This document shows, piece by piece, positions 1-62,752 of a DNA stretch of 64,000 nt (its first letter is position 1; every line of letters starts with the position of its first letter). The stretch is from contig OZ237763.1 in the NCBI GenBank assembly GCA_965178125.1, positions 434,001-498,000 on the forward strand, in the 5' to 3' direction. The notes beneath the pieces are model-generated. The model worked only from the letters and a program-made list of their open reading frames with translations. It was not told where the DNA came from and made no database searches. Source of the stretch: Bilabrum cf. latius (Eukaryota). A program made the position numbers and the translations under genes.

Positions 1-3000
1 AGCTCTGAGCAGCCCGAAAATTCTCTGCATCGGGGTGGACGGGCACAACCCGTACGATTAGGACTTCGTGCGGGCCTACAACGCCCTTCGCTCGTATGGC
101 TCGAGCTCTGGCCGCGGGTGGTCTGTGTCGTACCACCTGCTGACGCCGTCGAAGCCGCTGTCCAAGACGACCCTAGACAACTACGACGTCATTTTCCTGT
201 ATGATCTTGGGTCGTATTCTCACGACACTTCAACAAGCATGCGTAACTCGTTCTACGCGATAGGAGACTGGTACAACGCCAAGAGAACGAGTGTCGGTGA
301 GGAAGCGTTGTTTGAGGGCTTTATTGGTGCCCCCGCCTTGGGGCGGCCCTGCTGTGTATGGGGTATAATCGCTTACCTGTATATTGGTAGTACGCACTGG
401 TCGTGCGGAGGTCCCGTGTTTCTCCTTGTGTCGCCTTTCGTCCGTTTTGCCGAACGTTCGTTGGGCTTCACATCGCGTCACCGCCGGCACTGCATGGATG
501 GCGCGCGCGCACTCATGCCAGACCCAGACCCAGACCCAGTCCCAGACCTATTTTGCAGGCGATAAACTTCACATCATTTGCGATGGACGGATCATTTCTT
601 CTTGGTGGAAGAGTAGGTGGCAAATTGCCTATAAGTGAGTACCTCTCTACTGCCTATTGTCGCACATGGTAAATGTTATCTGCCAAAGCGTTGAGTAATT
701 ATAATGCTATTTCTAGGACGTAGTAGAAATAGAATTTACTTATCTATTTAACGCAAAGCCTGCTGCTGCACCGGATGCACTGGCCGCACGTCTCACCTAA
801 ACCTCTGCCACGCAGCTACGTGTACGCCATGGTGAAGCGTGGAGGCGGCCTGATTCTTTCTACTGATCATGCGCCGGCATTCGTAGATGGAATAAATTAC
901 GTAAACGCGCGCATCGGCATTGCAGGATTCAGTGGTAACTTCCGGTGAGTCGTCGAGCGGCTCCAAGACTGAGCGTATCGCGTTGAAGCACCGAGCACAC
1001 AGCCGACACGTCCACACTTTCCTTTACAATAATCTCTTACCCAATGCAGTCTCACGTATATCCCCACCGATTCGAACCACGTGATCATGAAGGAGCCGGC
1101 TCAGGCCACATTCTCTGGCAGCACCACGAGGCTGTCAGACGGCCGCACGTTCAACCGCTACCTGTGGGACAACAGCAGCCCCTCGCAGACTCCTTACGGT
1201 CTGCAGTCTAATGGAGCATTCCTGTACAGCGTGGCGTTCCATTCTGGCAACACGCGCACGCCGGGCATTTCCACCACGATCACCGGTGCGCTCAACTTTG
1301 GAGTGAAGATCGACTCGCCCGCGTGCGACCACGTGCACACTCACGGGACCTCAATCACCATCCGAGGCTCGGTGCGCGTGGCTAGTCGCTCGCCGTACAC
1401 GTACAAGTGGTCCAGCGACGTGCAGGGAAACCTCGGCAGCGGCTCTTCCATCTCGGTTTCGACCCTGCGCACCGGCAGGCACATCATCAAGCTCGAGGGC
1501 AGGGACGCCTTCAACTCCCTGGCGATCGCCAACGTGCGCATCTTCGTCAGGAAAGCCGACGGAAACAGCTGCTCGGCCGATGACGATTGCAGGAGCGGCA
1601 ACTGCGTGGACGGCGTGTGCTGCAACGTGGACTCGTGCTCCGGGCACGGCAGGTGCCAGTCCGGCACTGGACGGTGCTTGTGCGACGCTGGCTTTGGCAA
1701 CAGCAAGTGCTCTGGCTGCCTGACCAACTACTACGGCACGAGCTGCAGGTATTGCCTGGCCTCGGAGACATGCTCCGGGCACGGCAGCTGCGCGTCCACC
1801 ACCGGGCTGTGCTCGTGCTCCTCCCCCTGGGAGGGCGGCTCCTGCTCCGAGGGCCCGTTGGCCGTGTGCACGGGCGGGTGGACCGAGTCTAGCGATGGAA
1901 ACAGCTGCTATCTGTACTCTGGCAACGAGGAGGCGGATCGCAAGACGTGGACGGACGCGCAGAGTGCTTGCAGGCAGGCGGGCGGATATCTGGCCACGCT
2001 CGATTCCCTGGCAGAGTCTAACGAGGTGCAGGACCTCTGCGACTCCGGCACCTGCTTCTTTGGCGCAAACGATCGCGGGGCGGAGGGCACGTGGCGCTGG
2101 GACGAGGACGATACGGTCATCTCGGGATCGGTGTACAGCCGCTGGGCGACTGGGCAGCCGGACGACAGCGCTGGATTGCAGGACTGCGGCAGGTATTTCC
2201 CGTCGGGAGAGTGGGACGACAGCCAGTGCACCTCATCGCTGGACTACGTGTGCGAGAAGAGAGCCGAGTGCCCCGCGGGGCAGTACCGCCATTCTGACGG
2301 CAAGTGCAGGAGGTGCAGCGAGGGCACCTACAATCCGTCAGCCGGCGCATCTGGCTGCTTTGCGTGTCCTGCCGGGCGCTACGGCAGCACGACAGGCCTC
2401 ACAAAGCAGGACTGCACCGCGGTGTGCCCCAACGGCCACTTCTGCGTGGCAGGGTCGGCGAATCCTACGAAGTGTCCCGCTGGCACCTACGGTGCCACTA
2501 CTGGGCTGACCACCTCGGCTTGCTCGGGACCGGTCGCGGGAGGGTACTACTCCCTCGCGGGCGAGACCAGCGCCACGCCCAGCGCCAGGAAGTGTGCTGC
2601 CGGCCGATTCGGTGCCGCCAGGTCTGCGGGCGAGAGCGGTCCCACGACCTCCCAGTGCGACGGCCCGTGCTCTGCAGGTTACTACTGCCCCGCCGGTTCG
2701 ACGAGTGACGAGCAGAACGAGTGCGGGGGCAACGACAAGTACTGCCCCGGCGGGTCGGGCAGTGCCACGTCGGTGCCTAGCGGCTGGCGCTCGCTGGGCG
2801 GTGGCAGCGACGGGGACACTAGGACCTCGGTGGCGCAGTGCTCTCTCGGGACTTACTGCGTTGACGGCGTGGCACGCAACTGCCCTGCTGGCAGGTACGC
2901 GGCAAAGCAGGGGCAGAGCTCCTGCGACACGTGCTCGGCGGGCTACTTTTGCCCCGAGGGCTCATCGTCTGCGACCCAGGAGCCGTGCGGTGGAGGCCCC

Positions 3001-6000
3001 AGCGGGACTAGCTTCAACCCAGCGGCCGAGTACTACTGCCCCGCCGGCACGTCCTCTCGTCGGCAGGTGCAGTCGGGCTACTACAGCACGGATCCTGACG
3101 TTCTGGCCACGCGTCGATCAGGCGAGCAGCAGGCGCTGCGAGGGTACGTGGTGGTCAGCGGGCAGAGGGAGGCGGCTGTGTCCTGGCCATTCCAGCGAGA
3201 TGGCCGCGATTTCCCGTGCGGCGGATAGGGGCTGCCAACCGGTGCAGGCGGGACTGCGTTCGGGCCGCCGGCGTCAAACGCGACGCAGTACGGCCGGGTG
3301 TTTGTGCGTGAGGATGCGGTCACTGGCAGCCTTGTGCTGCAGCTGCCCGCCGTGGTGTCCAGCGGCACGGCAGGGGGCGAGACGTCGCTGTCCTCGGTGA
3401 CCTACTCGATCCTGAGCCAGTCCAGGGCTAGCAGCCCTGGCTACGTGGAGGGCGAGGAAGCCGAGGCGGAGCAGACCAAGCTCCTCGCTTAGTGCGCCAA
3501 GACGGAGGAGGACGAGGACCCAGAGGACTGGTTTGCCGCCCAGAAGGTCACTTCCGCCGGCGCGCCTGCCGGCACGAGGGGCGACGGACAGCTGGTCGTG
3601 GGTGCCGACGGACCCATCGATCGAGAATCGTGCGCGCTCTACGACGTGGTGCTGCAGGCCGAGCTGACCTACAAGCCCAAGTCGGACGCCGACGCTACCA
3701 CCTTTGCGGCTCGTTGCGCGCTTCGCGTGTCCCTGATCGACGTGAACGACCCGCCAGAGATCCCCTCGGGGCAGAGCAGGAGCGTGCTCGAGACGGCCAT
3801 GTCCGGCACCAGCGTCGGTGAAGCGATCGAGTTCAGCGACCCTGACGACGGCCAGCAGCTCGCCTTTGAGATCATCGGCGGGAACAGTGACGGCGTCTTC
3901 CGCATCGGGCGCTGCGACGGCAAGCTGACCATCGCCAGGAGCGGCATCCTCGACTACGAGGCTCCTCAGGGCGCTGGGCGGCAGAGGGTGCTCACCATCC
4001 GCGCGACGGACGACGGCACGCCGCAGCTCAGTACCGTGTCCAACGTGACCGTGAATGTGCTTGATGGCCCGGAGCCCCCCGTCCCGCGGAACGCCAGCGG
4101 CGAGTGGGCCTTTAGCATCGCAGAGGACGCCGTGGTGGACGCCGTGGTCGGCACCGTGTGGGCCTCTGACGCGGATGCCGGTGACGTGCTCACCTGGTCC
4201 ATCGCGCGGGAGGCCTTTGCCGGGAACCCTGCCGCCGGGCCAGTGTTCAAGATCAACGGGACCACCGGGGCGATTTATCTGGCCCGCGCTCGGGCGCTGG
4301 ACCACGAGACGGCTGCAGGTTCCGAGCACAGCCTGCTGGTTCGGATCAGGGATTCCACGCCGAGCGTGTTTGCCGGCCGTGACACCAACGGTGACGGTGT
4401 GCTCGAGTCGGAATCGGACCTACAAGCTCTCGAGTCGCTGGTAGAGGTCACGATCAGGGCCAGCAACGCCGAGGAAGCGCCCCTGCTGCCTCCCGACGCG
4501 TCGCAGGGGGAGGAAAGCCGAGAGTGGCCCGAGGAGCAGCAGGCCGTGTCCCTCTTTGTGATGGAGAACGCGCTCGATGGGACCTCGGCCGGCTCCGTGG
4601 TGGCCCTGGATCAGGATATCCGCTCGAGGGGAGACTCGATCACCTACACGATGCCCAACGACGCGGACGGCCGGTTCGAGATCGATTCGTCGACCGGCGT
4701 CATCTCGGTCGCCAGCGGTCAGGGAGGCCGCGCCGGCGGCCGCCTGAACGCCGAAGAGGCGGAGTTTTACGTGGTGGGCGTGGTCGCCACAGACAACACC
4801 CCCATCGCCCCCCTCGTCGGCTCGCAGTCCTACCGTATCACGCTTCGCAACGTGAACGAGCCGCCTCGTCCGTCCGAGGGCGTGGATGCCACGATCGCCC
4901 GAACGGTTCCGGAGTCCACGGACGTAACGAGACCCAACGACGCCGGCAGGGCCGTTGGCATTCCTCTGCTGGAGAGCGTCGTGGACGAGGAGGGCCAGGC
5001 CATGACATTCCGCATCATCGCTGCGAATCCCGCGGCGGGACTGGACATCTTTGCACTGTCGCAGCAGAGCAACGGCAACGAGAGCGTGTCTTCCAGCGGT
5101 CAGATCATCATCAAGCGGGCGCTGCTCGACGCCGAGAGCCAGTCCAGGTACACGCTGACCGTGCGGGCCACGGATACGGGCAGGCCGGCGGCGTACGCCG
5201 ATCTGGCGGTGGCCATCGACGTGACTTCGCTCAACGAGCCGCCTCGGCGGGCCACTGTATCGCCGGGGTACGGCGCGAGCATTGGAACCTCGGTGGGCGC
5301 CCAGCCCGCGGGCATGTGGGTCCTCAACCTGACCGAGGGATCGCTGGCCGGCGGCGTCGCTGGTGCGGACGGATTCGAGTCGGTGGATGCCGGCATCGTG
5401 TGCAACGACGTGGACGTGGGCGACGTGGTGCGCTACCGCGAGCTCTTGCCCGAGGAGCACGGGCCGCTGCGGGCGGTGCTGGGCGTGGATGCTTCCGACC
5501 TGCTTCCGTCCAACGTAGCGGCTGCTCTCAAGGCAGCGGGCAAGGTGCGGCTCGGCACCAATGCCACCGGGTCCAGCGTGCCTGGCGTCGTGTCTGAGCA
5601 GGAGGACGACGGAGGGCCCATGTTTGAGGTGGACGCATCCTCCGGCGCGGTCCGGCTGTCTGCCTCCGCGAGGTCACCCAACCACGAGGAGGACGGCGGG
5701 AACGTGTTCGCCGTTGGGGCTCGCTGCAGGGACCAGGCCGGTTTGTTTGATGACGTGGTCGGACTAATCGTGGTGACTGACAGGCTCGAGCCCCCGCGGA
5801 TCTCCAGCTCTGCGGAGGTATCTCTCGGTGAGCGGTCCACCCCGGGCACGGCCGTGGGAGCGCCCGTGCTGGCGCCGGATGACGACATTGGAGAGACCGT
5901 TACGTTTACTCTGCAGGGGAGCTCGCTAGTGACGCAGCTCTTCTCTGTCGACTCGACCAGCGGCGTGGTGTCGGTCAAGGCCGGTGCGGACGAGAATTTG

Positions 6001-9000
6001 ATCGTGAAGGGTGACACCCACGAGATTTTCGTGACGGCCACCGACTCGTCGGGGCTGGCGTCGTCAACTTCCATCGCCGTGACCGTGGTGGACGCCAACT
6101 TCCCCCCTGAAATCAGCGTTCCCGCCCTCTCCTCCCTCTCGGCCGTGGCTGAGGACGCGGGGGTGGGCACCATTGTGATCAGTTCCTTGTCGGCGACCGA
6201 TGACGACGGTCACGGTTTCGAGTGGTTCGTGGATGGCGAAAGCAGCGAATCGCCGTTCGCCGTGGACGCTTCGAGCGGGCGAGTGACGATCCGAGACTCG
6301 GGCAGCCTCGATTTCGAGACGGCGGCTTCAAGCGATGGCACCAAGTACGTCGAGCTCAAGGTGTTGGCGAGAGACGACGGGCCCGGGGAGCTCGAAGGCA
6401 GGGCCACGATCCGCATCCCGCTGCAAGACGCCCCCGAACCGCCGAGGCTGCCGGCCTCCTTTGCCTTCGTGATTGCGCAGCTGGAGAACGTCACTGCCGG
6501 TTCCCTCCCCGGCGACAGCACTGTGCTGGGCACGGTTCCATTCTCCGACGACGACGCGGACGACGTGGTGAGCCTGCGGCTGGAGGCTTGCACTGCCGCA
6601 GACATCGCGGCGGCTCCCTCGAGCTGGGACCCGCGCCAGGGAGCCGGGCACTTTGCTGTGGTGGATGCTGGGGACGGCGGGGGCGAGGACGGTCCCCGTG
6701 GCCCTCTTCGCCTGAGGATCGACGCTTCATCGGGACGGCTCTTTGCCGTTGGAGACACTATGGACTACGAGAGGAATGAGACCGTGACCGAGATGCCCGA
6801 GAGGTCGATCATCACCGTGGTGGGGCGCGATACGGCGGGGCAGGAGACTCGCACGGTCGTCGCGATCCACGCGCTAAACACGAACGAGCCGCCGTCCGTT
6901 TCGTTCTTGGACGGCATCGGCCCCAGCCTGGCAGCCGCTGCTGAGGTGCCGGAGGATACCGCGGCGGGGACTCGCGTGGCCACTCTGCTGAGTGCTGATG
7001 ACGACGTCGCCTCCAGGTCCAACCGCCTGACCTTCCGGATCCTGGCAGTAGACGGCCGCGATGTCACCAACTTGTCGGTGCCGTACGTGTCACCGGGCAA
7101 CGGCGGGGACGACGCCCGCGACCCCGATCCGGCCAGCCTGTTTGATCTCGAGCCCGAGAACGGAAACGTCCGGCTGGCTCGGGAGCTGGACTTTGAAAAC
7201 AGGCAGTGGCACGTGCTTGACGTGGAGCTGGCGGACAACGACTACGAGCGGCCGCTAGTCGTAACAACCCGCGTGTTTGTGCGCGTGGGGGACGTGAATG
7301 ATGTGGTGGTCGAGCGCATGACTGGCGCGCTCGTGCACTCGACGAGAGGCACCGACTCTGTCGCTCTGGTTGGCAGCAACCTTGGGTGGTCCGCCTCGGC
7401 GCTGGCAAGGGCAGCGGCAGCCTCCAGCGACGAAGAGAAGACGCTCTTTGGTGCCCCCGCGGATACCGCTGCATCGCTGGCCGATGTGACGTACGCCAGG
7501 ATCGATTCGGTTGCAACCGAACTCTCTCGGTTGGAGGAACAGGATGCGGCCGAGCTGGCCGGCAGGGAGCCGGCATACGTCGCCCCGACACTGGTGTCTT
7601 TGCCGCTGTACAACGCCACCACGCAGTGCGCGTACAGCGCTGCTTCTGATTCTCTCACGTGCGGGGTCCTGCCGGGCGCAGGAGGGCCCCTAGCCTGGAG
7701 GGTGTGCGTGAGGTAGCAATGCTTCACAACGGACCCGCATCTCGAACTGGGCGCCGGCGCGGCAGCCGAAGACTAGAGCGGGAATGCCACTGTTCCTGCC
7801 ACGGGGTTCCCTGGAATCGGCACCCGGTACATGGCCCCGATCATCGGCTCCGTCCAGTGCAACGGGGACGGCATGGTGCGGGAAATCGCGGACCCAGACG
7901 AAGTCGTTATGTCGCAGGGGCTGTCGCCCGGCGATGAAATCCGGGTGCTGCCTTCTGCCGGGAGGGCGACTTGCGTCCTTTTGGGGCAGGAGTTTGGTCC
8001 CACGGACTACTCGGCATCGGTGCGGGTGCTGACCAGGCGCACCCTGGCAGAGGGTGCCTGGGGAACGATCGGGCCGGTAGACGCCGCCGCTGCCGTTGAC
8101 ATGGTGCTGGACCAGAGCGGGGACGGGATCCAGTTTGCGGGCGGCGATGGCGTGGTAGCCATGCAGGCAGGCCGGTGCTCCGTTTCCTAGGCGCACGAGC
8201 GCATCACGTGCGAGCTGAGTTCCCCTGCCGGTGCCGGCGTGAATCTTTTCTGGGCCGCCGCCATCGAGGGGCAGTCGTCCGCAGCAACGCGGGGTGACAC
8301 TGCCGCCGGTTCCGGCCGGTTCCAGCGGCCCGTGGTTCGATCGATCGCGCTGCAGAAGACAGACGATGAGGAGACCGGGGCGGTGTCGATTGCGACCGCC
8401 GGCACTCGCGGTGGCTCGAGCGCGCAGCTGGTGCTCCGGGGCGAGGGGCTCGGGCATCGCACCGCAGTGGTCGAGGTGCTGGCTCTGGCCCCGCCCAAGG
8501 GACTCTAGCCTGGATTCTTGCTGGCAGGAGCCGGCAGCGTTCCCAGTGATCAGGTGGAGGATGGCTTCCTGGTCGACGAGTCGATGCCAGCTTGTCCAAC
8601 GACCGTATATGCACCGAGGCTGCTGCTGAACGGCAGCGCGCTGGCGGGCTGGGCGCACGCTCGATCGCACGCGGGCCTGGTGCCTGCGGGGAGCAACCCC
8701 TGGCCTTGGCTCGTGTCCACCTCGTGCTCCGTGACGGTGCCTCACACCGAAGTGCAGTGCAGCTTGCCGGAGGGGGCGGGCCAGAACCTAGAGGCGAGGC
8801 TTCTTGTGGCGGGCGCCTGGGCCAGGTTCCAGCCTGACGGTGATGCCGCAGCTCCTGCCACGAATGGGTCTGACGCTGTGGCCGGCACAGAGTGCAGCCC
8901 TAGCACGAGCGGCCAGGGTACCGTGGACGAGGGCGTGAAGGCGCTGCTGCTGTCGTACGATGCTCCGGTTCTCCACAGCGTGGATGGCACGGGTACGCAG

Positions 9001-12000
9001 GGCGGAAGCACCTGGGGTGGCCAGCCATTCGCGCTGAGGGGAGACTCCCTTGGACCACCCCTGGAGCGGCTACCGGCCACCATGCGCGCCATGCGGGTCA
9101 GCTATGGGCCGTACGAAGGCGCGAGATCGTTCGAGGGAATCGATTGCGTGGTGGCGTCTGCGCACACTGTGGTGTCGTGCTTGACCGCCCGCGGCGTGGG
9201 GCAGCGGCTGAGGTACAGGCTGACGGCTGCCGGTCACGCGAGTGAAATCCTGCCCACTGATGCTCGATACGCGGCCCCTGCTGTGTTCAAGTACGACGGC
9301 GAAGGCGCGGAGGACGCGCCAACGGAGGGCGGCTCTCTCGTCATTCTCTCGGGCGAGTCGTTCGGGTTCGAGACGAGGTTCATCGAGCAGGTGCGGTACA
9401 GCGCGCTAGATGAGGGAGAGACGGGCTCCGATGGTGCCGAAGCAGCGGCGTTCCACGCGTGGGGCTGCAACATCACCAAGCCCGATGTGGAGCTCTCCTG
9501 CTACACGGAGCAGGGGGCGGGCGGGGGACTCAAGTGGGCGGTGTGGGCCGGGCGCCAGAAGTCCGTGCAGCCTACCACCAGCTACGCGCGACCCGCCGTG
9601 CAGCACTTGGATGGACCCGGCGCTGGCGATGCTGCGACTGCGGGCGGGTAGCTCGTGGTGATTCGGGGGTCTGATTTCGGACCCCCGCTGCCGCTCGGAG
9701 CTCCCGCACCGCCGCTCGACTCGGGCGTGGGCTCCAACTCTTCCGATGCTGATGCCGAGGACGTTGCCGTTGTGCACCCGTCGGCTGCCCAATCGATCGA
9801 AGTGAACGGCACGAGGCCGTTCCTGAGAGAGGTGCGATACGGTCCCACCGGAGTAGAGTACCTCGCAGACCGCTGCCTCGTGCGGTCGCATTCCATGGCG
9901 GAGTGCCTCACAGTCCCCTCTGTCGGCTCGGAGCTGCGATGGACCATGCGCGTGGAAGGCAGGACGAGCGAGCTGTCCGTGGTGACGAGTGCAACTTCCC
10001 CTGCCGGGCTGGTGTCTGCCTCTAGGCTCCAAGGCGACACGATCGGCGACGGGCGCGACACTATCGAGCTGTTCGCAACCGACCTGGCGAGCGAGGACCC
10101 CGAGGCTGAGGTGGTGTTGGTCTGGGGACAGGGCACGCCGCAGGAGCAGGTGCTTCAGGCGACCACTCCTGCCTTTGTCATGTACCGAGCCGGCAGTACC
10201 GAAAGGATCTTTGAGCAGGCCGGCGAGGGAACGATTCCCTCTGGGCCCGTGGGTAGCACCAACAGCAGTGCCAATGCCACCGATCCCGCTTCCCCATCCG
10301 AAAGCGGACCGGAACCACTCGGTGCTCCCAGTGACGAAGCTGTGGCGCTGGGCATGTGGAACAGGGAGCGCGATCTAGAAGCGGTCCGCTTCACCGTGCC
10401 CCAGGGCCAGGGTACTGGCATCCCCGTCGCTGTCGTCGTTCGCCGCGCCGGAGCTGCCATCGGCTCTTCGTCTGCCGTGCAGGCGGCTGGCGACGCCTTG
10501 TCTTTCTCCTACAGAAAGCCGGTCATCTCCGAAGTGGTGGTCAAAGAGCTCGAGGACGAGTCTACGGGGATCCCGACAGGGGAGCGGGAGATCGAGGTTA
10601 TCGGGACCTCGTTCGGTCCTTCGCCCTCGGTGCTCTTGGATGAGATCCCGCAGGCGCTCGTGCTGGCCAGCCACGAGAAGGCGGTCCTCAGGACGAGTTC
10701 CCTCCAGGGCTCCTTGCAGGTGCTTGCCGGTGGCCAGGCATCCGAGCCGGTCTCCTTCTCCGATCTCAGTCCTCGAATCGATGCGCTCACTGATGATGCT
10801 GGCCTGCCTCCGGTGTTCCGCACAGAGGGTGGCGAGCTGCTTCGGCTGCGGGGCAAGCACTTTGGTACCAGCGAAGGTGCGATTGCCTTGCTGTCAGTGT
10901 CGGTCAGCGACGACCCGTGCCGGCTGGCAGATCCGGTGCAGGACGGCATGCAGGCAATCATCGACATCGACCCGGTGCAGAAGCTGCAGGAACTGCGCTG
11001 CTTCGTGCCGCCGGGCCAGGGGCTCGGCCAGGACGTGAGAGTCATCAGGGGAGCGCAGTCCTCTGTGGCGGCTCAGATCGACTACCAGCCGCCGGCGCTG
11101 AGCGCAGCTCCGTCGCCTGCCCCGCTGTCGACTACAGGCGGGTACGTCGAGCTGAACGGGGACAACCTGGGCAAGGGAGACCTGCGGTCAGCCTATCTGG
11201 AATCGCCCCACTTTGGGCTGGTGCAGCTGGACCTGTTCAACGAGCCAGCGGAGCTGTGGCAGAGCCACGCGGATCTCCTCTTTGGGTCTTCCGATGACCC
11301 TTCCTCGGACACCTTCGGGGGTCTGCCTGTCGGCGGTAGCACATCCAATGCTACAGATGCTGGTGCAAACGAAACGGCAGTGGATCTGCCGCCGAGGCCC
11401 ACCGTGACAGCCCGCGCCGTCGATCCCCATAGGGTCATCCGCGCTTTCCTACCGTCGGGTGGAGTTGGCGTTGCTGTGATCCGGCTGGACGTGGACGGTC
11501 AGGTAAACGACCCAGACAGCGAGGGCGACGCTGCCACGCTTCAGTTCGCACCTCCGCAGATTCACGCCGTCACGGCCGAGCTGGACACGGAGGGTGGCGT
11601 GGTCGAGATTGACGGTCTGGGCTTCGGTTCGCCTGACCTGGTGCAGCCCGGAGGTTTCCTGGATGCCATCCGTCCTATCGTGCACATCGGCACCACCCCG
11701 TGTCTCGTGGGCGATGACGACTGGTCCGACACCCACATCCGGTGCATGGCACCCCCTGGTGAGGGTGCCGACTACGCGGTGTCCGTCGAGGTGGCCGAGC
11801 AGCAGGCCACGGGACCCGACGGCGTGTCGATGCCATCAGCACGTATCTCGTACAGGGAACCCGAAGTTGGAAGCATCGCCCCGCTGCAGGGACCAAGCGA
11901 GGGCGGCTACAATCTCACCATTCGGGGTTCGAACCTGGGCTTGGACCCAAGGCTGTTCTTCGTGTCAACAGGCGTGAACCACGCAGAGTTGTATGCCGCG

Positions 12001-19487: not shown

Positions 19488-19695
19488 AAGATACGAGCTG
19501 GGTGATTGATGGCGAGTAGCAGCTGACGTTCGGCAACCTGTGGGTCGAGCGCGCGCATGGCGTGGGTGATACGAGCCCGATGCGCGGCATTCGCTGTTTC
19601 ATCTGGTGCGGTGCCTTGATGCCCTCAGCCGATCTAGTCTCGATGGGTCCGTTGGCTATTCTCTGCCGAGAAGCGTTTCGACTACAATCCTACTC

Positions 19696-43400: not shown

Positions 43401-43883
43401 ACCCCAGGGTCCTGGGCCAGGGACCCTCAAGCCTATGCAATTTGGGGACACCAAATCCCCAAACAAGCCTTTTTGAAAACAGTCATTTGGGGGTTAGATC
43501 TATTTGGGGACGATCCAGGGATGCCTCACTCGCCGTTCCGATCGGCAGCCGAGGGGTAGCAGCGTGGTGGAGCTCCTTGCTATGAACAATCCAATGCGGG
43601 ATGCCCTTGCGTGTGCCAGAGCAGCCGGGTAATGGCTACCCAGGCGCCTCATGGTAACGGCCACTGCCTACAGACAGCGTGGGTACACTTCCTAAAGACG
43701 ACGAGTCCGCGGAGGAGCCCCCAGCGCCCACCTTTTGGGCTGCAGCTCGGGGGCAGTGAATCCACACATCATGATGCTGCCATTCACATGTCAAAAATCA
43801 TTTCGATCATCTTTCTGTTATCGACCCCGAGTTTGTCTCGGCTCCTAATGGCAGCCCTTGCTGCGGCATCCACGACCACCACG

Positions 43884-50477: not shown

Positions 50478-51902
50478 GAATACCGTGCCCCTATTTGCAC
50501 ACTGCGCAAATGGAACTGGTTCATTCGACCATGATACGGCTATGGGTCTGTCGCGGTTCCCTCTGCTGACCGTTGAGAAGTTTCAGGGAGCCTCTGACCC
50601 AAACCATACCGAAGGCCAGTACGCCGAGGAGAGAATCGTGGCCGCGCTAGCGCAAGCCAAGGCGCACAACCCGAGGCAGCTTTCTTTGTTTTACCTCAAC
50701 ACGCTGATTGATTTCAAGTTCTACAGGCTGTACGAGACTACGCTCGCTAATCCCGATATGCTTCTGAAGGATATCCACGGTGACCGGGTGACAGTGAAAG
50801 AATTCCCCGTATTTGACGTAAGTCATCAAGACTAGGCATATACGCGTAATTCTCCAGATGCTCACGCCAACGCTGTAACACCCCACATTCGAAATTTTCA
50901 ATCCCCCCGCAGCTCCGCCGCAACGACACCAGGAAAGCGTGGCTAGACACCGTGCGCTACGCCATGACCAAGGCTCCCGGCCACGAGGCTGTGGACGGAG
51001 TATTCGGTGACAGAGGCAGAGGCAGCGCCTTCGTCGACCTGAAGCACGCCAAGCTCACCAACGCCACGCGGGCGGCGTGGGATCGCGGCCACCTGCAGCT
51101 GCTGGCAGACGCGCAGGCGCTGATCGACGAGCTGTCCCCCGGGGAGGGTGGGGGAATCCTGGTGCTGAACGGGAGGGATATGCCCGGCGTGAACGGCCGC
51201 ATGTACGAGAACTTCACCTGGGACGATTCCAAGGCAGTTCCCCCCGGTGACGACCTTGCGATCCTGCAGAAGGAGTGGCCTTGGCACTACCCCGAGGCCC
51301 AGCGCGCGGGGAACAGCGACACCAATGACGGTGGTGGTGGTGGTGCGGGGCTGGGCGAGGGCCCGTACCGTGTGGCCGAGGTGCACAGCGACGACTGCCC
51401 GAACGGGTACAGCGGCAAGTACAACGTGACCCTGACTGCCTTCCTGGTGGGAGCGTCGAACCGGAGCTACTACGGCTGCACTGAGACGTGGGCATGCGAG
51501 GGGGGCTGGCTTGTGCCCCGAGCGGAGTACTCGCAGCCTCTCGGCCTGCCCAAGGGGCCGCCCACTAGGGAGCTAGCCATGGGTGATGGAGATGGAGATG
51601 GCGTTGGTGATCCGTTTGCCGGCGCGTGGGGAGGGGAGGCGTCGTGCGGCTCCCTGGCCGCTGCCATGCCGAGGGAGGGCAGAGAGGGGGGCTCGCACGG
51701 GTGGCCCACGGAGGGCGCGGCGCCGGTACGGTTCCGCAGGGAATTCGGGGCGGGCACGGTGGCGTATCTGCAGCAGGAGGGCGGCAGCCAGCAGTGGGTG
51801 GCGCCCTGCATCCTGTGGTCGTCGGGATTCCGGACCGGTGCGGCGGCGGACTGCGCAGCCTACGACTGCCTGGAAAGGGCAAGGCATTCCAATGTTTAGT
51901 AA
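50478..51902 (+). CDS. Putative glycoside hydrolase (GHL15-like); 5' exon(s) unresolved
   Basis: NTVPLFAHC, LSRFPLLTVEK, LFYLN, LLKD..G, VFD|LRRNDTRKAWL (intron 50818-50912, GTAAGT..CGCAG), DGVFGDR, FLVGA...YYG, PLGLPKG, FRREF; ends TAG-TAA-TAA. Confidence 0.6.
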
Positions 51903-52279
51903 TAATTGTTGCTTCTGTCAATGTGCGGTTGATGTGACTGTCACCTGAGGCACGCTGGTCGTTTGGGTGAACTTTTTGAGTAACGTGACATCAGGCAGAA
52001 TCTCCGATCCTCGCGCGACTCTGGGTGGAGCTACGGCCACACCAACAGGTACCACGCCAGTGTCACGATGGCAATCGAGGCATAGCAATTATCGCAAAAT
52101 TGAAGCTCATACATCGGTTGGATCGTGAGACTGCACGCATATAGCAGCGCCCGTGCGAGTTCCGTACTGCGACTGTACGCTATACTCTCTGACGGGCCAT
52201 ATTCTTCGCCTCTCAGGCATCAAACAGTAGAGTTGCAGATCATTCAGATAGAGCATCACTGATTGGCGCAACTGTTGTG

Positions 52280-55200
52280 ATGAATTTGCGCAGATGTGTC
52301 CTCCCCTGTGCTTTTTCGATTGGCTGTGGCAGCCTGAGTTCCAGCTTGTCCTTGCTGGCCTTCATGTCCGTCCTAGTACAAATGGTTATGGCTATGTCTG
52401 CATCAGCACATATTTGTAGTTTGCCTTTCAATGTGTCTAGGTCGGTTGGAAGCTTGCAGGCTCGCGTTGACTGGCCGCCGTCCGGGGCACGCGCCGAAGC
52501 TCGACTGCCGCCCCTTGCACAGAATGGATCTCGCAGCGGGACACTGTGGGTGGGAATAGTATCACAGAATACTCCAAGCGCCGCGGGTTAGCCTGCATGG
52601 AGCTGCAGCTAGACTCCAACGAAGAGCTACGATGCCTCAGTACGTGACGGCTCATGTCTCAAGTTTATCGCGAAGGCCATTATCTTGGACAACCCGGGGG
52701 ATGAAAGCTCGTCGATACAATCTAATGATACGCTGAAGCCGTTTTGGAGCAGTAGACAAACAACAGCGGCTATCGAGGCGTTCGTACTGGCTCCGAAAAC
52801 TGAGCTGGCGCGACCGTGGCTGCCACGCCCATCCTTTGTCGATGATGCACAGCAGCCAAATGCATTGCTCAACTACACCTCTGGTTGGGCTAGAAATCCA
52901 TCGCTGGCATCCGACATTCGCCTGGCTACAGAAGCTACGATGCATTCGGGCGAGAGCGACCACAACAATGCTACGAGCGTAGCCCTATCGTTGCCTCTTT
53001 CCTTGCTGGACTTTGTTTCAAATGAGGCGACTTGGGATTGGCGACAAGGCTTACGAATTGGCTATGAGTGCATAAAGCCGGCTGGTGGCATCCAGTCTTT
53101 CGGGGAGGCGGTAGCTTTCCTTGCTTCCAGCAATGGATCCCTCGGAGAAGGAAGCGACTTCGCCTTACCAACATGGACTGCTTAGAAGGCTGTTTCTATG
53201 AATCCAACTGTCGGGTAGCTGCTACGTCCACCAGTACACAGCGTTCCGCGTGTCAAAGTCGGCAACCAAAGCAGATCGAATGCTGATCACGACGCTCTCG
53301 CCGTGATCTCGGCCGGATCCAGGCACGCCTGTGGTGTAGTTGCCGGAACAGGCGATGTGGTGTGCTGGGGAGATCACTCGGGCGGGGCTACTGGAATAGA
53401 ACCATCTTCCCGGGTCGAGTATGCCGGTCCAAGAGACATCGGCAGCGTGGCCCTAGGCCCTGGCATGCGGGCCAGGGACGTTTGCGCGGGGCTCGATTCC
53501 ACTTGCGTTGCCCTTGACAACGGTGGTGTCACATGCTTTGGGAGAGGGTCTGACTCGTGGATGGGCCTAAGAAGTGAGGCCTCCAACGAAGCACCGTACC
53601 GTCGTCCAGTAGTCCACTTCGAGTCACCGGTGGAGAGACTATCCTGCTGGGCCTATCACGGTGTGGCAGTCCTGAGGGATGGAACGATGAGAACGTGGGG
53701 TGGCAGTGGACCCTACGGCTAGCTGGGGCGCGGAGGTGTCGTGAGAAAGGACGACACGTTCACGCTTGCAGACCCAGTCACACCTGACCTCGACTACGCG
53801 GAGCAGGGCGGGGTGCTTGATGCGTGTGCGATGCTCTATGCCACCGCCGTGCTGTTCAAGAACGGGAGAGTCAAGACTTTTGGGGAGATGCGACAGGGGA
53901 GCATTATCCCGGACTATGACGATGACTTGATCGGCCCGCCTGACACCAAGGTCATCACTGCTCCCCGCTTGCTGGACCCCGTGAACCTACTCAACGGGTC
54001 TTTGGTGGAAAGCATCTCTTGTGGGGCTTTTCATGTGTGTGCAGTCCTTCGTGATGGTGCTGGGAGCATCTGCTGGGGCCTCCCGAACCCTGTAGGTTAG
54101 ACGTGCCGTGGCGGAGCTTGCAACAGCTACTAGCCCGAGACGCTATCGGCCATTGAGTTTCCCCCGGACATGGGCCGCATTGTTCAGGCAGATGCATCGC
54201 CTGAGAATTCATGCTTCCTCGATGACCATGGGTAGATTCTGTGCACAGGTGAGACTGTGACCGGGGTGGCGATGGCAGCTGAGGGCCTATCACCGCTGAC
54301 ACAGGATGCGAACGACAGCCTGATACTCGACCTGGGCGAGCCAGCATAGGACCTGGCCTGTGGCACAAGGTTCTGCTGCGCGATATTGCAGAGTTTAAGA
54401 GTGCGCTGCTGGGGGCAAGGCACCGAAGGTCAGCTCGGCAACGGTCAGCGTACCTTGTACGGGGACGATGAGCCCATTTCTGCGTCTCCTCCGGTTCCGA
54501 TCGGGCAGGAGTTTGCAGTAGCTCAAGTCGACGTCGGGGGTGTGCACGTGTGTGCGCTTGGTATGCAGGGTCAGATAAGGTGCTTTGGATCAGTCAGTGA
54601 CTACGCATCTGGTTTCATGCCAAACGATGACGAGGGTATCGGTGTCGTCTTAGGCGACGACGAGCACGCCAGGCGTGGCAGGCCTGTGGAACTACCTCCA
54701 GACAAAGAAGCAGTGCAGGTGTGTGCTGCCGCGGGATATGGATGTGCCGTTGTGCGCCCCATATCATCGCTTAGTCGGAGTATGACTAGGCATGACGATG
54801 ACTGGGTGTCGCTGCGGTACGGTCAAGCTCACATAACGGGGTTAGAAGCGTCTCAGTCAGATTAGAGCGAAAACGATCTGTACTGCTGGGGCACGTTGCT
54901 TCAGGTTGGGAACGGAGACTTCACTGCCGTTGATCCCAGACCCTCCAAGGTTCCGCTCCCAACAGGTAACATCTCGTGGCTGGATTGCGCAGAAAGGTAG
55001 GTCTGTGTGACGGGTTCCAATGGCACGTTCTGCTTCGGGTACTTCTGGTACCCAAATCCGGATTTTGTGACGCAGACAGCCGACTTTGTGTTTAGCGCAA
55101 TTGCTCCTGCAATTCCACAGTCTGTGCATGAGAACATTCCTGCAGTCTGGGTGGATGTGGCAGTTGGGGCGTCCCATACAGTAATGATCTCGGACGTGGG

Positions 55201-58200
55201 GCACGTGTACTTTTTTGGGACGATTCCAACCGGATTTGACACGCCAGGTCCCCGCATATATGTTGTTGCTGACGTCAACCGCCTGGAGATGCCAGAGGGG
55301 AGGAGGGCAGTAAGGGCGTGCTCTGGTGTGTCGCACTCGTGCGTTATTTTGGAGGGGGGAAAGCTGCTGTGCTTTGGCAGCAATGATATGGGGCAGCTTG
55401 GTTTTGGAGTCGCTGGCGCCTTCATGCCTGGAGCACCGCTCTATAGCGTACCCTTTGTCGATTTCGGGGATCGTTCGGCGTTTGCAGTCGACGTATCATG
55501 TGGATCGTCTTTCACGTGCGCGATAGTTATTGTAGAAGGAACTCGTCGGGAGATTCGTTGCTTCGGATCGAACGACAATGGCCAGCTTGGCCGATCTACG
55601 GCCACTAAATCGGATAGCATTGATACAACGGTTGCTTCAAATCACGTTAGCCTGGGTGGTAGAATACCAGAGTAGATCTCATGTGGCCTCACAACAGCTT
55701 GTGTCGTTCTGTCTGGAGGTGCGGTCACATGCTGGGGAACAGCAGTGTCGGTGTAGCCAGAGCGCTTGCTGGGTAGGGGGCAACCTCTCCCAGAGGGTCG
55801 TTGGGCGGCGAGCACGAGGTCTTCGCTGGTGCAGTTCGGTCGCCGACGACCTGCTGTTGTGCAGCTGCCCAGTGGCGAAAGGTCCTAGGATTCAGAATGC
55901 AGCGACTTGGAGCAAGACGTCGCATTCTTGAGGGGGACTGGTTGGCTTCTTTCTTCGCCCTCCGGTGCCAGCACTGTTGCAGTTGTCTCTGGTCCTGGCC
56001 CGTGTAACCCTGCATCCGCGTCTCTGGCATTCGGCACGGCCGAGGCGTTTCAATTGAACGGATGGCAGCTACGAGAAGGGATTTCTGGGGGATTGCAGGC
56101 ACTGTTGGGGTCATTTGGTTTTGATGAAGTGTCTAAGACGTATCTTGGGACGTTTGTTGGACGCCAGTTGATCGTTCCAGGAACATCGTAGATCGTCTCA
56201 GAACGGAGCCAGCAGTGCGACACTTTGGACCAGCAGGTCTATGCGGATTCTTTCTCGAGCCTCTTAGATAGCATTGCTTTAAGCGTCTAGGCTTTGACGA
56301 GCGATGGGCTTGTGGCCACTGCAGGCGGTTCCAGACTGAAGCTGTCGTCGCCCATTTTGGAGCTGCTGCAGCACCTGCGGCCAAACGCCGTACCCGAAGG
56401 TGTACAGTTGCAAGTTCGATCTGCACCCGCAACAGATTGCAACTGGAATGCACAAGACGGCATCGTGTGCATGAGCCCGCCTGGGTATGGCGAGTCAAGT
56501 CCGACCACAGCATGTCTACCTGGGCTTGCACGACGTTCTGGGCACTTGCTAGGACCAGCTGCCCAAAATAGCAGCAGCGCTGCGTGCACTCACGCAGGGC
56601 ATCTATCCTTCCTTGCGCCGTAGGTGAGGCGCATATCACCTTCTGCAGGCTTGATTCCGTGCCCATTCAATCGCAGTGCATCAGGCTGCGGAGATATTGA
56701 GCAGGCTGAGCTCGGGGGATTCCTTATTCGACTAGTAGGGTCTGGTTTCGGTCCACTGCGAGAAAAAGATGGCTTTCTGGTTTTGATTGGTGACCAAGCT
56801 TGCATGGACGCGCGGGTAGAGTCAGATCTGGAAATTGCTTGCGTGCTTCCACATTTGCTTGGTGACGATTGGCCGGTTACGGTGCTTGTAGGTGGGCAGA
56901 CCAGCGAAGGTCCCACGGTTTCCTTTGCCACCCCTGTAGTGCAAGCCGTGAGTCCCAGCGCCTTGATGCCTTCGAGTTTCGGTGGAAAGATAGCTGTGGT
57001 GATGTAGACACGCGGTCTTGCACCGACTTTATTGCAGTCTGTAGAGATTGGGGGCTCTGCATGCGACTCGGTGGCATTGGGTCCCGAAGGTTTGCTTCGA
57101 TGTGATCTCCATCTACCCGAGTCATTCAATGGGACGGATGGGTCATCAATAATAGTGCGTTCTGCGATGCGTGCTGGTGCAAGTGGCTGGAATAGCACCG
57201 TTGTATCCGTTTCTGCCCCCGAGCTGCTCGAGCTTGCGCCTCCTCCCTCGATCTTTGAAATCATCACGTTCGGGGTCCCGACGTCTGGTATGCTGCGGAC
57301 TCCCATTGGAGTCGCTGGGGCGGGACTTGGATTTAGCGGAGACGATATTCAAGCTGTTCTTGTCAACAAAATACCCTTGAACTCCTCGGCTTGGCTTTGG
57401 AGAAGCCCGAATCGGGTAGAGCTACTGGCGGTGCCGCCAGGAGTGGGGACAGGTATCGTGCGGATCGTCACCTCTCAAGGACTGCAGTCAAACGAGGACT
57501 TATTTGAGTATGATAGCGCGCAAGTTGAGCTCATTTCGCCCGACTACATGCTAGCTGGGCAGCAGAACGCAACTGTGGCTGTGTGTGGGAACGGGCTGCC
57601 TCGAGAAACTTCAAGCATAGTCTCACTCGTGATCGGAGGCACGGACTGCCTTGAAGCAAACGGGCGCATCTAGATCACGTCTCTGCTTGGTTCGGCAAGG
57701 GATTTCTCCGAGAGCTGTGTTGAGTGTTAGGGTTTCGACGCGCCAACTCTGTGGGCTGAGCCAGACGATGTTCGCATCCGACTGGCTGACTCTGCTTCAA
57801 GTGCCAAACACGCCACCAGTGAGTTCCTTGATACTACCACGCATGCGAAGAGCAATTTATGGATTAACCAGACTGGTCGGTTTAGGGGCGAGCCGGCGCC
57901 AGTCATTAAGTCGTTGTCCTATGCTTCAGCGACGGTGGATGGCGGCGAGATAGTGCAAGTGTTCGGCTCCGGGTACGGAAGGTCGGAGCGGGACATCGCG
58001 AGAGTAAGGATATGCGATAGGTGGATAAATGCAGTCGTAGACAGATCTACTGGAATTGCCAACAATGTCACGACCGTTTGGTTGTCACCTGGTGAGATGG
58101 CCGTGGCGCTACCGCCGGGAGTCGTGTCCTGCGAGGTCCTGATCGAGTCAAGCGCCGGTCTCTAGGCACGATCCGGATCCAATGTAGTACGCCAGTCACC

Positions 58201-61200
58201 GTCAATCGAAGTGGTACGGCCGTCTTACATACTAGCGGGTGATGATCTATCCGATCCTACTTCTAATCTGATCGCATGCGGCAGCGGTCTGTTGCCTCTC
58301 TCGTGGCAAGATTCTGGAAATTTGGCGCACGACCTAAGTCAAAACTCGTCGGTTGTATCGATGAGAGTGCTAGGGATCGAGTGCTTGAGTATAGCTTCGA
58401 TTAACAGTAGCTGTATTCGCTGCGATGGCCTATCTGACCGTGTTCCAAGCGACATCCCTTCCGCGGCATCTACAAGTGCCATGCTGGTGCGATCTGGAGA
58501 CAGGACTGCGGGGGTATCTCCCCAGGTGTTTTCAGCCGTGTCTCGTCCCAGCGTTGCAACATTAAGCCCACCCTAGCTTCCGAAGGACCTAGACGAGGCC
58601 GTATTGTACCTAGGCTCCGGGTTTGGAGAGACTTCTGACGACCTCAGTGCCCTTTACATGCTGGCCGATGACGCAGGCAGCGGCGCGCTGACTCGCCTAG
58701 CAGCGAACTTGGCAATCGAGAGCTCTGAATCACAGTCGTTTAGTGAAATCATGCAACAATTGAGGCAGCCCAGTCAACTGACGCGTTGCACTTCCTCAAG
58801 GCATGTATCCCCGTCTCTTGCGGAGTGCGTACTGGATTTGAACCACCCGCTCAGGCTACTGGCGCAGATGTACGCTGTCGGTAATTTGACCGCGCTCTTG
58901 CCACCGTTCGCTCGAGCCGTCGCATGCAACAAGCACGGAGTATGCTCTGTGCCAAGTGAAGCCGTAGTACAATTGTCGCAAGCATCCGTGTCATTCCCGC
59001 CCCTGTTCGTGCCTTGGGACGTTCGCGTGCAGAGGTCTGTGGGCCAGTCCGCTGTGGATGTGCAGTGGTGGTATCCAACGGAGGCAGCAGAGTCAGCTGC
59101 ACTTGGACAGGTTCCTAGCGCCTCGGCATTGCACACGACGGCCAAGTATTTCGTTGTGGAGTCGATAGAGTTGAAGCAGAGCTCACGCAATGCGTCAGAG
59201 TTCTATACCGTGGCGGGCAGTAGGCAAACTGTGGCAGTATTCGCAAGATCGCGGACTCTGACAGCCAAAGGTACTGTTGATTTGCAGCACCCAGACGTAC
59301 TGACTGCGCTAGGTTCGCCTGAATACTGCAGTCTCGATCCAACTGTATCAGCTGATGCGCTAGGCAGCGTTCGGCGTATTGCGATTGCGGATTTGCAGTC
59401 GTCAGAGCCAGGCCCATGGCAGCTCGGTGAGCACTTGTCAGCTGCAAGGCAATCAGCCTTGCGTCATTGGGTACAGGATGGCGTGCAGCTGCATCGCATT
59501 GCAGCGCCTCTTGCCAGTGATGGAGCGTTTGCAATCCGAATTTCAGCCACTGACTAGTCCGGATACGTGCTGTAGCATGGGCCTTGGAGCCGCCCTAGTT
59601 TGCCACAGTGCGCGCAGTCTCAGTTTCTGGACGCAGTCGCTTGGAATGATAGCTAGTCAACGGCACCCTGCAGTGGTCCTGTTCTGCTGCCATTTGACGT
59701 AGATGATGGAACGGATCAACAAACGCGAGGCACCTCGTCGTCTGTTGTGGTGACAACAGACACTGGCAGCTCCCCTGCCGGTAAAAGCAATCAAGTCGAT
59801 AGCAGTTTGCAGTGTTTCTAGTGTCCCTCAGACCAGGCAGACTGCAGTGGCAGAGCCAGGAATCAGATCGAACCACTACCAGGGTACTGGAGGGTACCAT
59901 GGGCTGCAGTCCCGGACCTTGCATTTGCCACGTGCCCACACCCCTGGCGCTGCGCTCCACAGCCGCTCCATAGCGTCGCAAACGGTGAAGCTAGTGGCGT
60001 ATTGCCTGGCCAGTCTTCGCGTCCAGTGCAGGAAACGGTGCAGGCAAGCAATAGACCAGTGGACAGCCTTGATACACTGGAGGCCATCCTGTCTTAGCCA
60101 GATTTCCTTTCATTTGCAGCCGCTTTCGAAGTCTAGCTGGCGCAGAACGAGTCTGACAACTACGCGAAACCGCTCGTGTGTGCCGAGGGGTACACTGGTG
60201 TGCTATGCGAATCCTGTGCGGCGGGATACGTCAGGTTGCTGTTTGGATCGTGCGGACCGTGCCCTAGCCGGTCCACTTCTATCGGCATCGCCTTCGTGGT
60301 CTGCGTGGCCATGCTGGCCTTCTACGGCGCACTAGTCGCGCGTTCCCACTGCAATGCGGTGCAGCGCACTCGGCGACAGGACGAGGTGGCTGCAAATTTC
60401 AAGATCTCAAGTGCACCCGTAATCTTGACGGAATCGTATACCCCTGCAAAGTCGAGCGGAGTTGCGAGCGAAGTTGCGGGAGCCAGGGGCACGGTCCACC
60501 AGAATGTCAGCAGCACAAGTGGCTCGACTAGAATCAACACTCGGTCACGCAAAGAGACCCCAGAAGAAGCCCTCCGTCGTCTGAGGTCCTCCTCGATCCT
60601 CAAGGTGATCCTCGGTCACCTGCAGATGCTAGCAATGTGCGCCATTGTGGATGCAGGGTGGCCAAACCTGCTCGAGTACGCCATTGTCGGTGCGACCACA
60701 GCGTCTTCTGTGGGGGCCTAGGTCGTCGCCCCTATGTGTCTGCTGCCTCAGGAGGACACCCGTTTGGGGCTAGACGGCCAAATGGAGGAAGGGATCTGGT
60801 TCGGCCGCAGCAGTCTTTACTACAGTAGTGCAGCTATCCTGGTACTGCCAGTGGTGCTGCTAGGTGCCGTGGTTGTAGGCGCTGCGGTGCTGCAAGCCGT
60901 GTCGGGCTGCAGGCAGTTGGGCTTTCGGACTTGCTGCAATGCATGGACGGTTCCAGTCCGCCTTTGCTTGCAGAATTGCGGGGTGCTTTAGAATGGGGGT
61001 CATCAAATGGTCCCAATCCCGATCCGTGATCGCGCAATCATTGCAGGCGCCTCGCAAGCTAGAAGGCTGCAAGCTATTGCCGAGCACTATGCCGTGGAAG
61101 AGAAAGACGTGGCAGTTGTACCTGCAGACCGCGCCAGTGGAGATGAAAACAGGGATGTTGTCGCTTTCGGCCAGCGAGAAAGGGACGGCTCAATCTCTGT

Positions 61201-62752
61201 TGCTATGGGAGACGAGATGGTGGCAGTGGCCGACGGGGTGCAAGATCACATCGATTATGACGAGAATCGGCTGGCATCACTTGCGAATGAAGAAAGCGTT
61301 CAAGACTCGTCGAGTAAGCAGCAATCACGGCGCACCATTGCCGCTCGGGTTCGGGTTCCCGATTCGCTGAACGAATTTCAACCATCAGTTCCCCTGCGCT
61401 TCTGCTACGCCTCTATCACTGTTGCCTTTCTGGCGTACAGTACCATGACGACAGCTGCTCTTCGTCTCCAGGCCTGTGTATCTGTAGGAGCCGACCGCAG
61501 CGAGCTGGCTCGCTTCGAAGGCTCGTCTGTTTAGCACGATGGGTCCGAAGGCAGCCAGCTCAGAATGCTGTTCGAGCTGGACGTACGCTGCGACGATAGC
61601 AAGTCGACGAGTTTGCGATAGGCCATGTCTATTCCTGTGCTGCTGCTGGTCTCCCTCGGTCTGCCTCTCGTGGCTGTACTATCCATGGTGTTCACCGGGA
61701 TCTAGCAGGTCCCGCGCTGGCATTGTGTCATGGATCATGAGCCTGTTGGGCGACGCTCGGCGGCGATCTATCGATACTTGTGGGGTTTCCTGACTGTCGG
61801 TATGCGGTCCGGTTTCGACTCGTGGGAGGCCGTAAACATGACCCGCAAAGCACTGGCAGGCTGTGCTGTAGTTTTCTTGGCTCCCAGCGGGCCCTTCATG
61901 CAGCTCGCAGCAATGCTAGGTGTCACAGTCAGTTTCTTGCTCTTGTAGGTAGGGGCTGCTCCCTACGACCACGCTTTGCTGAATCGTTTGCAGCTGGGGT
62001 GCTAGGGTCTGTTGGTTGTCACCCTTCTGGTCGCGCTGGCAGGCGTGGCTGACGCTGACAGTGGTTTGGTGCAGGTGCTGGGTGGCTTCACAACCACGGC
62101 ACACGTCGCTGTGGTTCTATTTGGTCTGTATGAGGTGGCGCTCATCGGCAGCATGGAGTTGGGGCTTTCAAACTCCTTGAGAACCTGCTAGGTTTTGAGC
62201 GTGTGCAGCTCGTGCTACAAATGTTCTCTGTGCGGCGATGTTCCCGACGAATGCAAGAATCAAGAGGCAAGACAGTCTGATGAAACGTAGCGTGTGCCTG
62301 GTCATCGAAACGGTCTTGGTGGTCCGAGACGACGTGCGGGAAACAGAGGGGGTGATGCTGGTGAAAGCGACTAGATTCAGTCAATGACTTCTAATCCTGT
62401 GGCTGGTGGAAGGTACAGAAATCCGCTGAGATTGGGCGAAACGACAGTATCTCCTATAGTTGCGGTCTCATCAGGGCACGGACAGGATGCTCGCACTTCG
62501 CGGGCTTCCGAACACAGTAGATCCGCTCGTGAGTGGGGTTCCGCTGGAGATATGGCCGCAAGCCAGACGGGTGAAACCGTGAACTCACTCTCCGCTTCTA
62601 TTGGTCCACTCGACCCGCCCACTGCGTTAGGGAGCCGTGCAGATCGCGTCAGACTTGTAAACAGTGCTCGTGTGGGGTCACTGGCGCCAGACTCAAAGGG
62701 CGTGAACCCAATGATCCGCGCTCTGGGCAAGTCCGCAGACCGTGAGTGTTGA
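52280..62752 (+). CDS. Large surface protein ~3,490 aa: signal peptide, RCC1/BLIP-II beta-propeller repeats, IPT/TIG repeats, Cys-rich segment, multi-pass (~9) TM module
   Basis: All main ORF-track pieces from 52277 to 62384 lie in frame 2. About 38 in-frame TAGs and no TAA/TGA until TGA 62750. Motifs CWG...GQLG, ISCG..H.C, GSGFG, CAEGYTGVLCESC, WGFL..G.....WEAVNMTRK. Confidence 0.88.

Follow-up and report, generated by a model that had tools for sequence, protein, structure and literature searches.

UAG as a probable third glutamine codon, with UAA and UGA as stops, in a GC-rich 64-kb stretch of eukaryotic DNA

Nuclear genetic codes very rarely give UAG and UAA different meanings, and only a handful of eukaryotes have been described in which they do. 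In the available portions of the survey by McGowan et al. 2024, UAG coding for glutamine (Gln, Q) with UAA kept as a stop is listed for Iotanema spirale and for the ciliates Protocruzia tuzeti, Hartmannula sinica and Trochilia petrani (PMC11687900). The mechanism predicted for Iotanema, as given in the accessible part of the original report, combines a tRNA-Gln with anticodon CUA and the change T32G in the GTS motif of the release factor eRF1 (PMC5304391); suppressor tRNAs with anticodon CUA are likewise reported in those ciliates in the portions of PMC11687900 mentioned above. Here we describe a stretch of 64,000 nucleotides (nt) from contig OZ237763.1 (positions 434,001 to 498,000, referred to below as the window and numbered from its first letter), for which an earlier note, made from the letters alone, had proposed that TAG encodes glutamine while TAA and TGA remain stops. 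The signal of a reassignment in the window is real and far beyond chance, and the proposed code is supported by motif columns, fragments of a related organism's protein, paralogues, codon usage and identical contigs. Very probably, nuclear UAG has passed from stop to a third glutamine codon, with UAA and UGA as stops. The same note had called UAG-only reassignment rare, naming Iotanema, a rhizarian and phyllopharyngean ciliates, and the sections of PMC11687900 and PMC5304391 on hand agree with it.

With TAG taken as sense, open frames of 5188, 3519, 1726, 1561, 1214, 1175, 617 and 553 amino acids (aa) extend over both strands; under the standard code the longest open frame in the 64 kb has 1407 aa. 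Making TAA sense brings a gain close to zero, with 21 open reading frames (ORFs) of at least 300 aa as against 19 without it. The gene set used for counting consists of 10 genes in 11 coding segments, together 16,030 codons or 75% of the window. Each gene was cut back to its first plausible ATG, and a GHL15 gene of two exons and a short acidic ORF were added. On both strands together these frames hold 105 TAG, no TAA and no TGA. The two off-frames of the identical DNA contain 110 TAA, 638 TGA and 252 TAG, a rate at which ≈ 374 TAA and TGA codons would be expected in-frame if the frames were non-coding. The statement that the reading frames are broken by TAG only, never by TAA or TGA, is thus borne out, and equal in-frame rates of TAA and TGA, which had been named as a refuting observation, are excluded by a count of 0 against ≈ 374 expected. 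Seven of the 10 genes end at TGA and three at TAA.

These counts distinguish between the known types of code. A code in which UAA is read as glutamine as well does not fit, with TAA found at none of the 16,030 codons, and neither does an ambiguous stop/sense code in which all three stop codons, or both UAR codons, are read as sense besides terminating, as TAG is the only stop codon found in-frame. What is seen corresponds to NCBI translation table 15: UAG lies in-frame inside conserved coding sequence under selection, and UAA and UGA terminate and are never sense. The base following TAG has the same distribution as that following CAG (p = 0.22), so that TAG shows no sign of a termination context. 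Taken together, the frames support TAG as a sense codon, with TAA and TGA as the sole terminators observed.

The TAGs are genuine sequence and not sequencing errors, because over 10 kb the contigs of four studies agree in every letter. The comparison covered 21574-31600, a region with 21 TAGs, and for every long piece gave no differing letter, no insertion or deletion and no joint; the four coded runs stand for four studies, and one of the runs is possibly the source of the window itself. TAG as a systematic base-calling error, likewise named beforehand as a possible refutation, is contradicted by this comparison. The region contains two genes on the plus strand, a PP2C phosphatase gene (21586-26754, 1722 codons, 8 TAGs, TGA end at 26752-26754) and a gene without Pfam family (26946-31592, 1548 codons, 13 TAGs, TAA end at 31590-31592). 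Runs X1, X5 and X7 all carry the eight TAGs of the PP2C gene. In X5 and X7 the contigs keep every TAG and break at the gene borders: those of X5 cover ≈ 21346-26778 and 26934-31865, with a depth that differs between both genes (37.8 versus 14.7), and that of X7 ends at 26802, while the contig of X1 runs on. Such a pattern would be that of transcripts which keep their UAGs, but it counts as a weak hint, because the library type of X5 and X7 was guessed and X5 is marked 'probably DNA'. The contig ends 24-48 nt past the TGA of the PP2C gene hint, equally weakly, that this TGA is the true end. AATAAA-like signals stand right after it (26755-26810), and the contig of the next gene begins at 26934, 12 nt before its ATG, which would mean very short untranslated regions if the contigs were transcripts.

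Catalytic regions that straddle TAGs, as had been claimed for the PP2C and DNase I-like genes, were found in both cases. Pfam places its PP2C match in the 1726-aa frame. The PP2C motif blocks FGVFDGHGG, VANVGDCRAVL, LVIACDGVWDVL and GSHDNVTCVVVDL align in one frame with solved PP2C structures; the TAG codons 1207 and 1584, numbered from the start of the ORF at 21574, fall between these blocks, and motif 11 is placed 100 codons past the last TAG of the gene. The DNase I-like gene (43884-45536, minus strand, 550 codons, 4 TAGs, TAA end) codes for a protein with a Ser/Pro-rich stalk and a membrane anchor, and its Exo_endo_phos match, at aa 27-333 of the 553-aa frame, encloses TAG codons 33 and 64.

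A view of the amino acid behind TAG comes from the RCC1/TIG gene (52280-62752, plus strand, single exon, 3490 codons, 38 TAGs, TGA end at 62750-62752), whose product contains RCC1 repeats, TIG repeats, a Cys-rich module and a multi-pass membrane region (Pfam: RCC1 and TIG in the 3519-aa frame). Two of its TAGs, in the contexts 'GPYG-TAG-LGRG' and 'NPVG-TAG-TCRG' (region positions 131 and 257), sit on the Q of the GQLG signature, which the same protein spells with CAG or CAA in three other blades. Among 120 distant homologues the two columns hold Q in 54 of 95 and 49 of 104 cases, and glutamate (Glu, E) in 12 and 9. The columns of the DNase I-like protein are uninformative, with S/V/T at TAG 33 and K/R at TAG 64. 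Over 14 usable TAG columns from four homologue sets, the column log-odds are 1.09 for Q, 0.46 for arginine (R) and −1.94 for E; in a control, the same procedure recovered 19 of 20 ordinary residues. UAG does align with glutamine in homologues, by a small margin over R and E. The word-index protein searches, run with the RCC1 region, the DNase I-like protein and the PP2C domain, returned distant homologues only (≤ 34% identity over long stretches), and their length window excludes short fragments, so that close relatives cut at TAG could not appear. Codon usage points in the same direction. TAG makes up 15.6% of glutamine codons overall (105 in-frame TAG beside 144 CAA), and its share tracks that of CAA, from ≈ 5% in genes of 66-68% GC to 21-24% in genes of 54-56% GC. 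The neighbours of TAG are enriched in Q (6.7% versus 3.6% background) and not in E.

Two tandem paralogues on the minus strand provide a comparison within the window. Paralogue A (33704-36943, 1079 codons from MTSKIRRM, 15 TAGs, TGA end) has no Pfam family, and paralogue B (38556-41843, 1095 codons, 12 TAGs) also ends at TGA; their proteins are 76% identical, with five TAG positions in common and a dN/dS of 0.375. In the local alignment TAG is partnered by TAG 5 times, by CAG/CAA 5 times, by GAG and by Arg codons 4 times each, by TCG twice, and by AAG and GGG once each, and no TAG-TTG pair occurs in the paralogue alignment. When the non-TAG partners were scored in the global alignment against each residue's own partners in that same alignment, the partner spectrum fitted Q best (−41.9), with R (−45.4), lysine (K, −50.0) and then E (−51.2) behind it. 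The commonest substitutes of true Q are R and E (7 each of 87), as they are for TAG; those of true E are K, Q and D (the last 6 times), and TAG has no D partner. The tandem repeat has a period of ≈ 4.9 kb (33700-43800). Its coding bodies are 73-83% identical in DNA, with one 300-nt block (34422-34721) at 95%; the 5' leader and upstream parts (37169-37467 versus 42073-42372) match at 96-97%, and another stretch of 261 nt (37603-37863 versus 43517-43777) matches at 96%. This uneven identity suggests gene conversion or a conserved promoter or leader.

When aa 1-1200 of the 1548-codon gene's product served as query, an exhaustive HMMER search found a relative's orthologue. The family gave 69 matches at E ≤ 0.001, with conserved cores at ≈ aa 636-787 and 860-930, and is without a Pfam model. 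The relative's fragments measure 74-278 aa, are 70-93% identical to the query and all lie on Logan contigs of 5099 or 3084 nt; they appear to be an orthologue cut up by a standard-code gene caller. The public protein collections hold it as at least six pieces cut at in-frame stops (P0163-P0176, P0232, P0233). Three fragments end exactly before the window TAGs q181, q476 and q805, as known from the gene calls, which indicates that the relative shares these interruptions. Where the relative reads through a TAG of the window, it has Q at q118, q206 and q1340, K at q1051 and Y at q804, the latter from an ungapped reading. Scans of JGI metagenome contigs with the 1548-aa protein and with fragment P0232 turned up no relative. 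The TAG = Gln code is probably shared with at least one related organism. Standard-code callers shatter genes in this way, so that the proteome would be invisible or wrong in public protein collections.

On these grounds TAG most likely stands for glutamine, and several observations have to be set against this. Few sites bear on its identity; with distant homologues the lead of Q over R is marginal (1.09 versus 0.46), and conservation is much lower in the TAG columns than in those of ordinary Gln (mean log-odds 0.08 versus 1.01). A first, cruder scoring by residue-conditional averages, later replaced by the column log-odds with controls, put Q behind K and R. In the paralogues TAG stands opposite GAG at 4 positions of the local alignment and at 3 of the global one. 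In the relative, two window TAGs (q1051 and q804) align to K and Y, and three of its fragments end where the window has GAG (q945, ≈ q1140 and q1382), which makes TAG-Q and TAG-E pairs about equally frequent in close-relative comparisons. Moreover, any retention of UAG in mRNA would have to be read from the X5 and X7 runs of guessed library type, and only ten gene ends, without homology anchor, bear on UAG as a terminator.

One alternative is that UAG is sense but codes for another residue, most plausibly Glu through a tRNA-Glu with anticodon CUA, or else Arg or Lys. The GAG pairs in the paralogues and the relative's ends on GAG speak for UAG = Glu, a code known from an uncultured ciliate in the consulted parts of PMC10553269 and PMC11687900, and R comes second in two scorings, with K and R on top in the crudest one. 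Nevertheless, GAG differs from TAG by one base and outnumbers CAG 1.45 to 1, and the Q-E swap is frequent (with 7 of 87 it shares first place among the replacements of true Q in the global paralogue alignment), so that TAG-GAG pairs are expected under Gln as well. In the GQLG columns Q outnumbers E 54:12 and 49:9, at five window TAG sites the relative has Q three times and never E, and in the partner spectrum, where TAG lacks the D partners seen 6 times for true E, E lies 9 log units below Q. Glutamate is the main and only serious competitor to glutamine, and a residue other than glutamine is unlikely. About as improbable is a dual, context-dependent UAG of the Condylostoma or Blastocrithidia kind, translated within genes and terminating near some 3' ends. 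It would draw on the 3' end of the GHL15 gene (51897-51905), which reads ...GTT TAG TAA TAA with TAG as the last sense codon and may equally be taken as glutamine followed by tandem stops or as a UAG acting at the 3' end with back-up stops, and on there being only ten gene ends, none of them fixed by homology. In known ambiguous codes, unlike here, the other stops are not confined to termination: TAA and TGA are never sense in the window. PP2C motif 11 lies well beyond the last TAG of its gene, the base after TAG behaves as that after CAG, and in Iotanema, whose code is the same, none of 730 transcripts had UAG as terminator according to the part of PMC5304391 at hand.

A glutamine-coding TAG could also belong to a giant virus or an integrated giant-virus element rather than to a nuclear genome, and code 15 is indeed among the codes tried for giant viruses in the accessible part of the GVMAGs V2 paper (PMC13524828). 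Against this, none of 20 translated frames of the window matched a viral hallmark family (capsid, packaging ATPase, polymerase or other) in Pfam, and the viral_contigs scans returned no relatives. Huge surface-protein genes of 5170 and 3490 codons and a coding density of just 75% also speak against a virus, as does the run with a longest record of 212 kb, where the stretch sits in a contig of 33 kb with unremarkable depth; a viral origin is therefore very improbable. Still harder to credit, and the least probable of the explanations considered, is that the TAGs are never translated, being base-calling errors, RNA-edited or spliced-out sites, or marks of dead genes. The RNA labels of X5 and X7 were guessed, which leaves this explanation some room; it is opposed by the identical, joint-free letters in four studies, by the five TAGs kept between paralogues under purifying selection and by the three TAG positions apparently common to the relative, and zero TAA or TGA in 16,030 codons is incompatible with gene decay. 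Pyrrolysine-type recoding was considered too and rejected, as the 105 sites lie at variable, Q-like positions. We know of no pyrrolysine-type system in eukaryotes.

The surroundings of these genes look like those of a eukaryotic nucleus. The GHL15-family gene (Pfam GHL15, plus strand, exons 50134-50817 and 50913-51902, 2 TAGs, TAA end) is split by a 95-nt intron at 50818-50912, which has the form GTAAGT...CAG, lies in phase 0 and upon removal joins both frames exactly. It is the only intron recognised in the window; each of the remaining genes, those of 5170 and 3490 codons included, consists of one exon. GC content is 54-67% and spacers measure 1-5 kb. A canonical GT-AG intron, eukaryote-type domains and large intergenic spacers mark the window as probably nuclear DNA of a GC-rich, intron-poor eukaryote. 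The atlas neighbours of two ORFs free of TAG form a mixture of Chlorophyta, Haptophyta, 'Cnidaria' records and a single diatom (Bacillariophyta) cluster, and therefore no taxon was assigned; 'stramenopile-like', the earlier label for the host, is a guess. Within the 64-kb window no tRNA gene (ARAGORN), no Rfam match and no eRF1 gene were found. By analogy with the other UAG-only codes, a tRNA-Gln with anticodon CUA would read UAG and not UAA, and the N-domain of eRF1 would have lost its affinity for UAG while still recognising UAA and UGA.

Among the remaining genes, the largest is the cadherin/TIG gene (1087-16599, plus strand, single exon, 5170 codons, 10 TAGs, TGA end at 16597-16599). Its product carries a C-type lectin domain, an Ephrin_rec_like module, at least five cadherin repeats, TIG and a C-terminal multi-pass membrane region; the Pfam matches in the 5188-aa frame are Lectin_C, Ephrin_rec_like, Cadherin (5 stretches) and TIG, and the atlas neighbours of the C-terminal part bear TRP/Ephrin_rec_like labels. 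For the frame drawn earlier as 1050-16599, the TAG count and the TGA end stood and the start did not, the first ATG being at 1087. The two giant surface proteins (1087-16599 and 52280-62752) share a plan of extracellular repeats, which are cadherin/TIG in one and RCC1/TIG in the other, a Cys-rich module (Ephrin_rec_like or laminin-EGF-like) and a multi-pass membrane region, whose atlas neighbours carry 'TRP C-terminal domain' labels. The small acidic ORF (18819-19487, plus strand, 222 codons, 1 TAG, TGA end at 19485-19487) has a run of ≈ 60 D/E residues, sits in an otherwise gene-poor region of 5 kb (16600-21570) and matches only the low-complexity families Nop14/NOA36 in Pfam, below threshold; the case for its being a gene is weak. 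An Ala-rich gene without Pfam family (47921-49714, minus strand, 597 codons, 2 TAGs, TGA end) completes the set. The TAG counts given earlier for three genes, 10 in the cadherin/TIG gene, 8 in the PP2C gene and 38 in 52280-62752, were reproduced, and so were the stops, TGA at 16597, 19485, 26752 and 62750 and TAA at 31590, 43884 (minus strand) and 51900.

The window is a further case of a rare, already known UAG-only to Gln code. A wider claim stands at an even balance of probability: that an undescribed eukaryotic clade of at least two species, outside ciliates and fornicates, has acquired this code independently in a GC-rich genome with UGA as its main stop. An independent origin would count once the organism has been placed. 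A GC-rich, UGA-terminating case unlike the ciliates would be an independent datum on how eRF1 and a CUA suppressor tRNA uncouple the two codons, and it would test the need for codon capture under AT pressure, since a GC-rich genome with UGA as main stop fits poorly with simple AT-driven codon capture. More speculatively, it could give a clue to which lineages host the giant viruses that share this code.

Outside the ciliates, the literature yielded no GC-rich organism reported to read UAG as Gln besides Iotanema, although supplementary tables may list further taxa. Phyllopharyngeans have gene-sized chromosomes and ciliates very short introns, whereas the intron of the window has 95 nt. The code itself, NCBI table 15, is the same in Hartmannula sinica, Trochilia petrani and Protocruzia tuzeti, according to the sections of McGowan et al. 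2024 drawn on here (PMC11687900). Seven ciliate genomes have 29-50% GC and contigs of 1-10 kb in the available text of PMC10089648; the window, on the other hand, is a multi-gene stretch of 64 kb with 54-67% GC. The closest likeness outside ciliates is Iotanema spirale (Fornicata), in which UAG alone has likewise gone to Gln and UAA and UGA are stops (Panek et al. 2017, PMC5304391, in part). Only ≈ 19% of its UAG positions are Gln-dominated in the portion of that report consulted, a share no lower than that of its canonical Gln codons, and this resembles the poorly conserved TAGs of the window (PMC5304391). The two differ in the use of stops, with UAA 104 and UGA 15 in Iotanema, as far as the same portion goes, against TAA 3 and TGA 7 in the window (Fisher p = 1.5e-4; PMC5304391).

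The UAR = Gln codes of table 6, found in many ciliates, ulvophycean green algae, hexamitin diplomonads, Streblomastix and Amoeboaphelidium, assign UAG to Gln as well. They differ in their treatment of UAA, since TAA occurs at 0 of 16,030 in-frame codons of the window and ends three of its genes. UAG is uncoupled from UAA, as in the window, in the rhizarian exLh and a phyllopharyngean lineage from TARA (UAG = Leu in both) and in Scotinosphaera (UAG = Ser), going by the parts of PMC11687900 at hand. The window departs from these codes in the residue that UAG would specify, Leu and Ser scoring far below Q.

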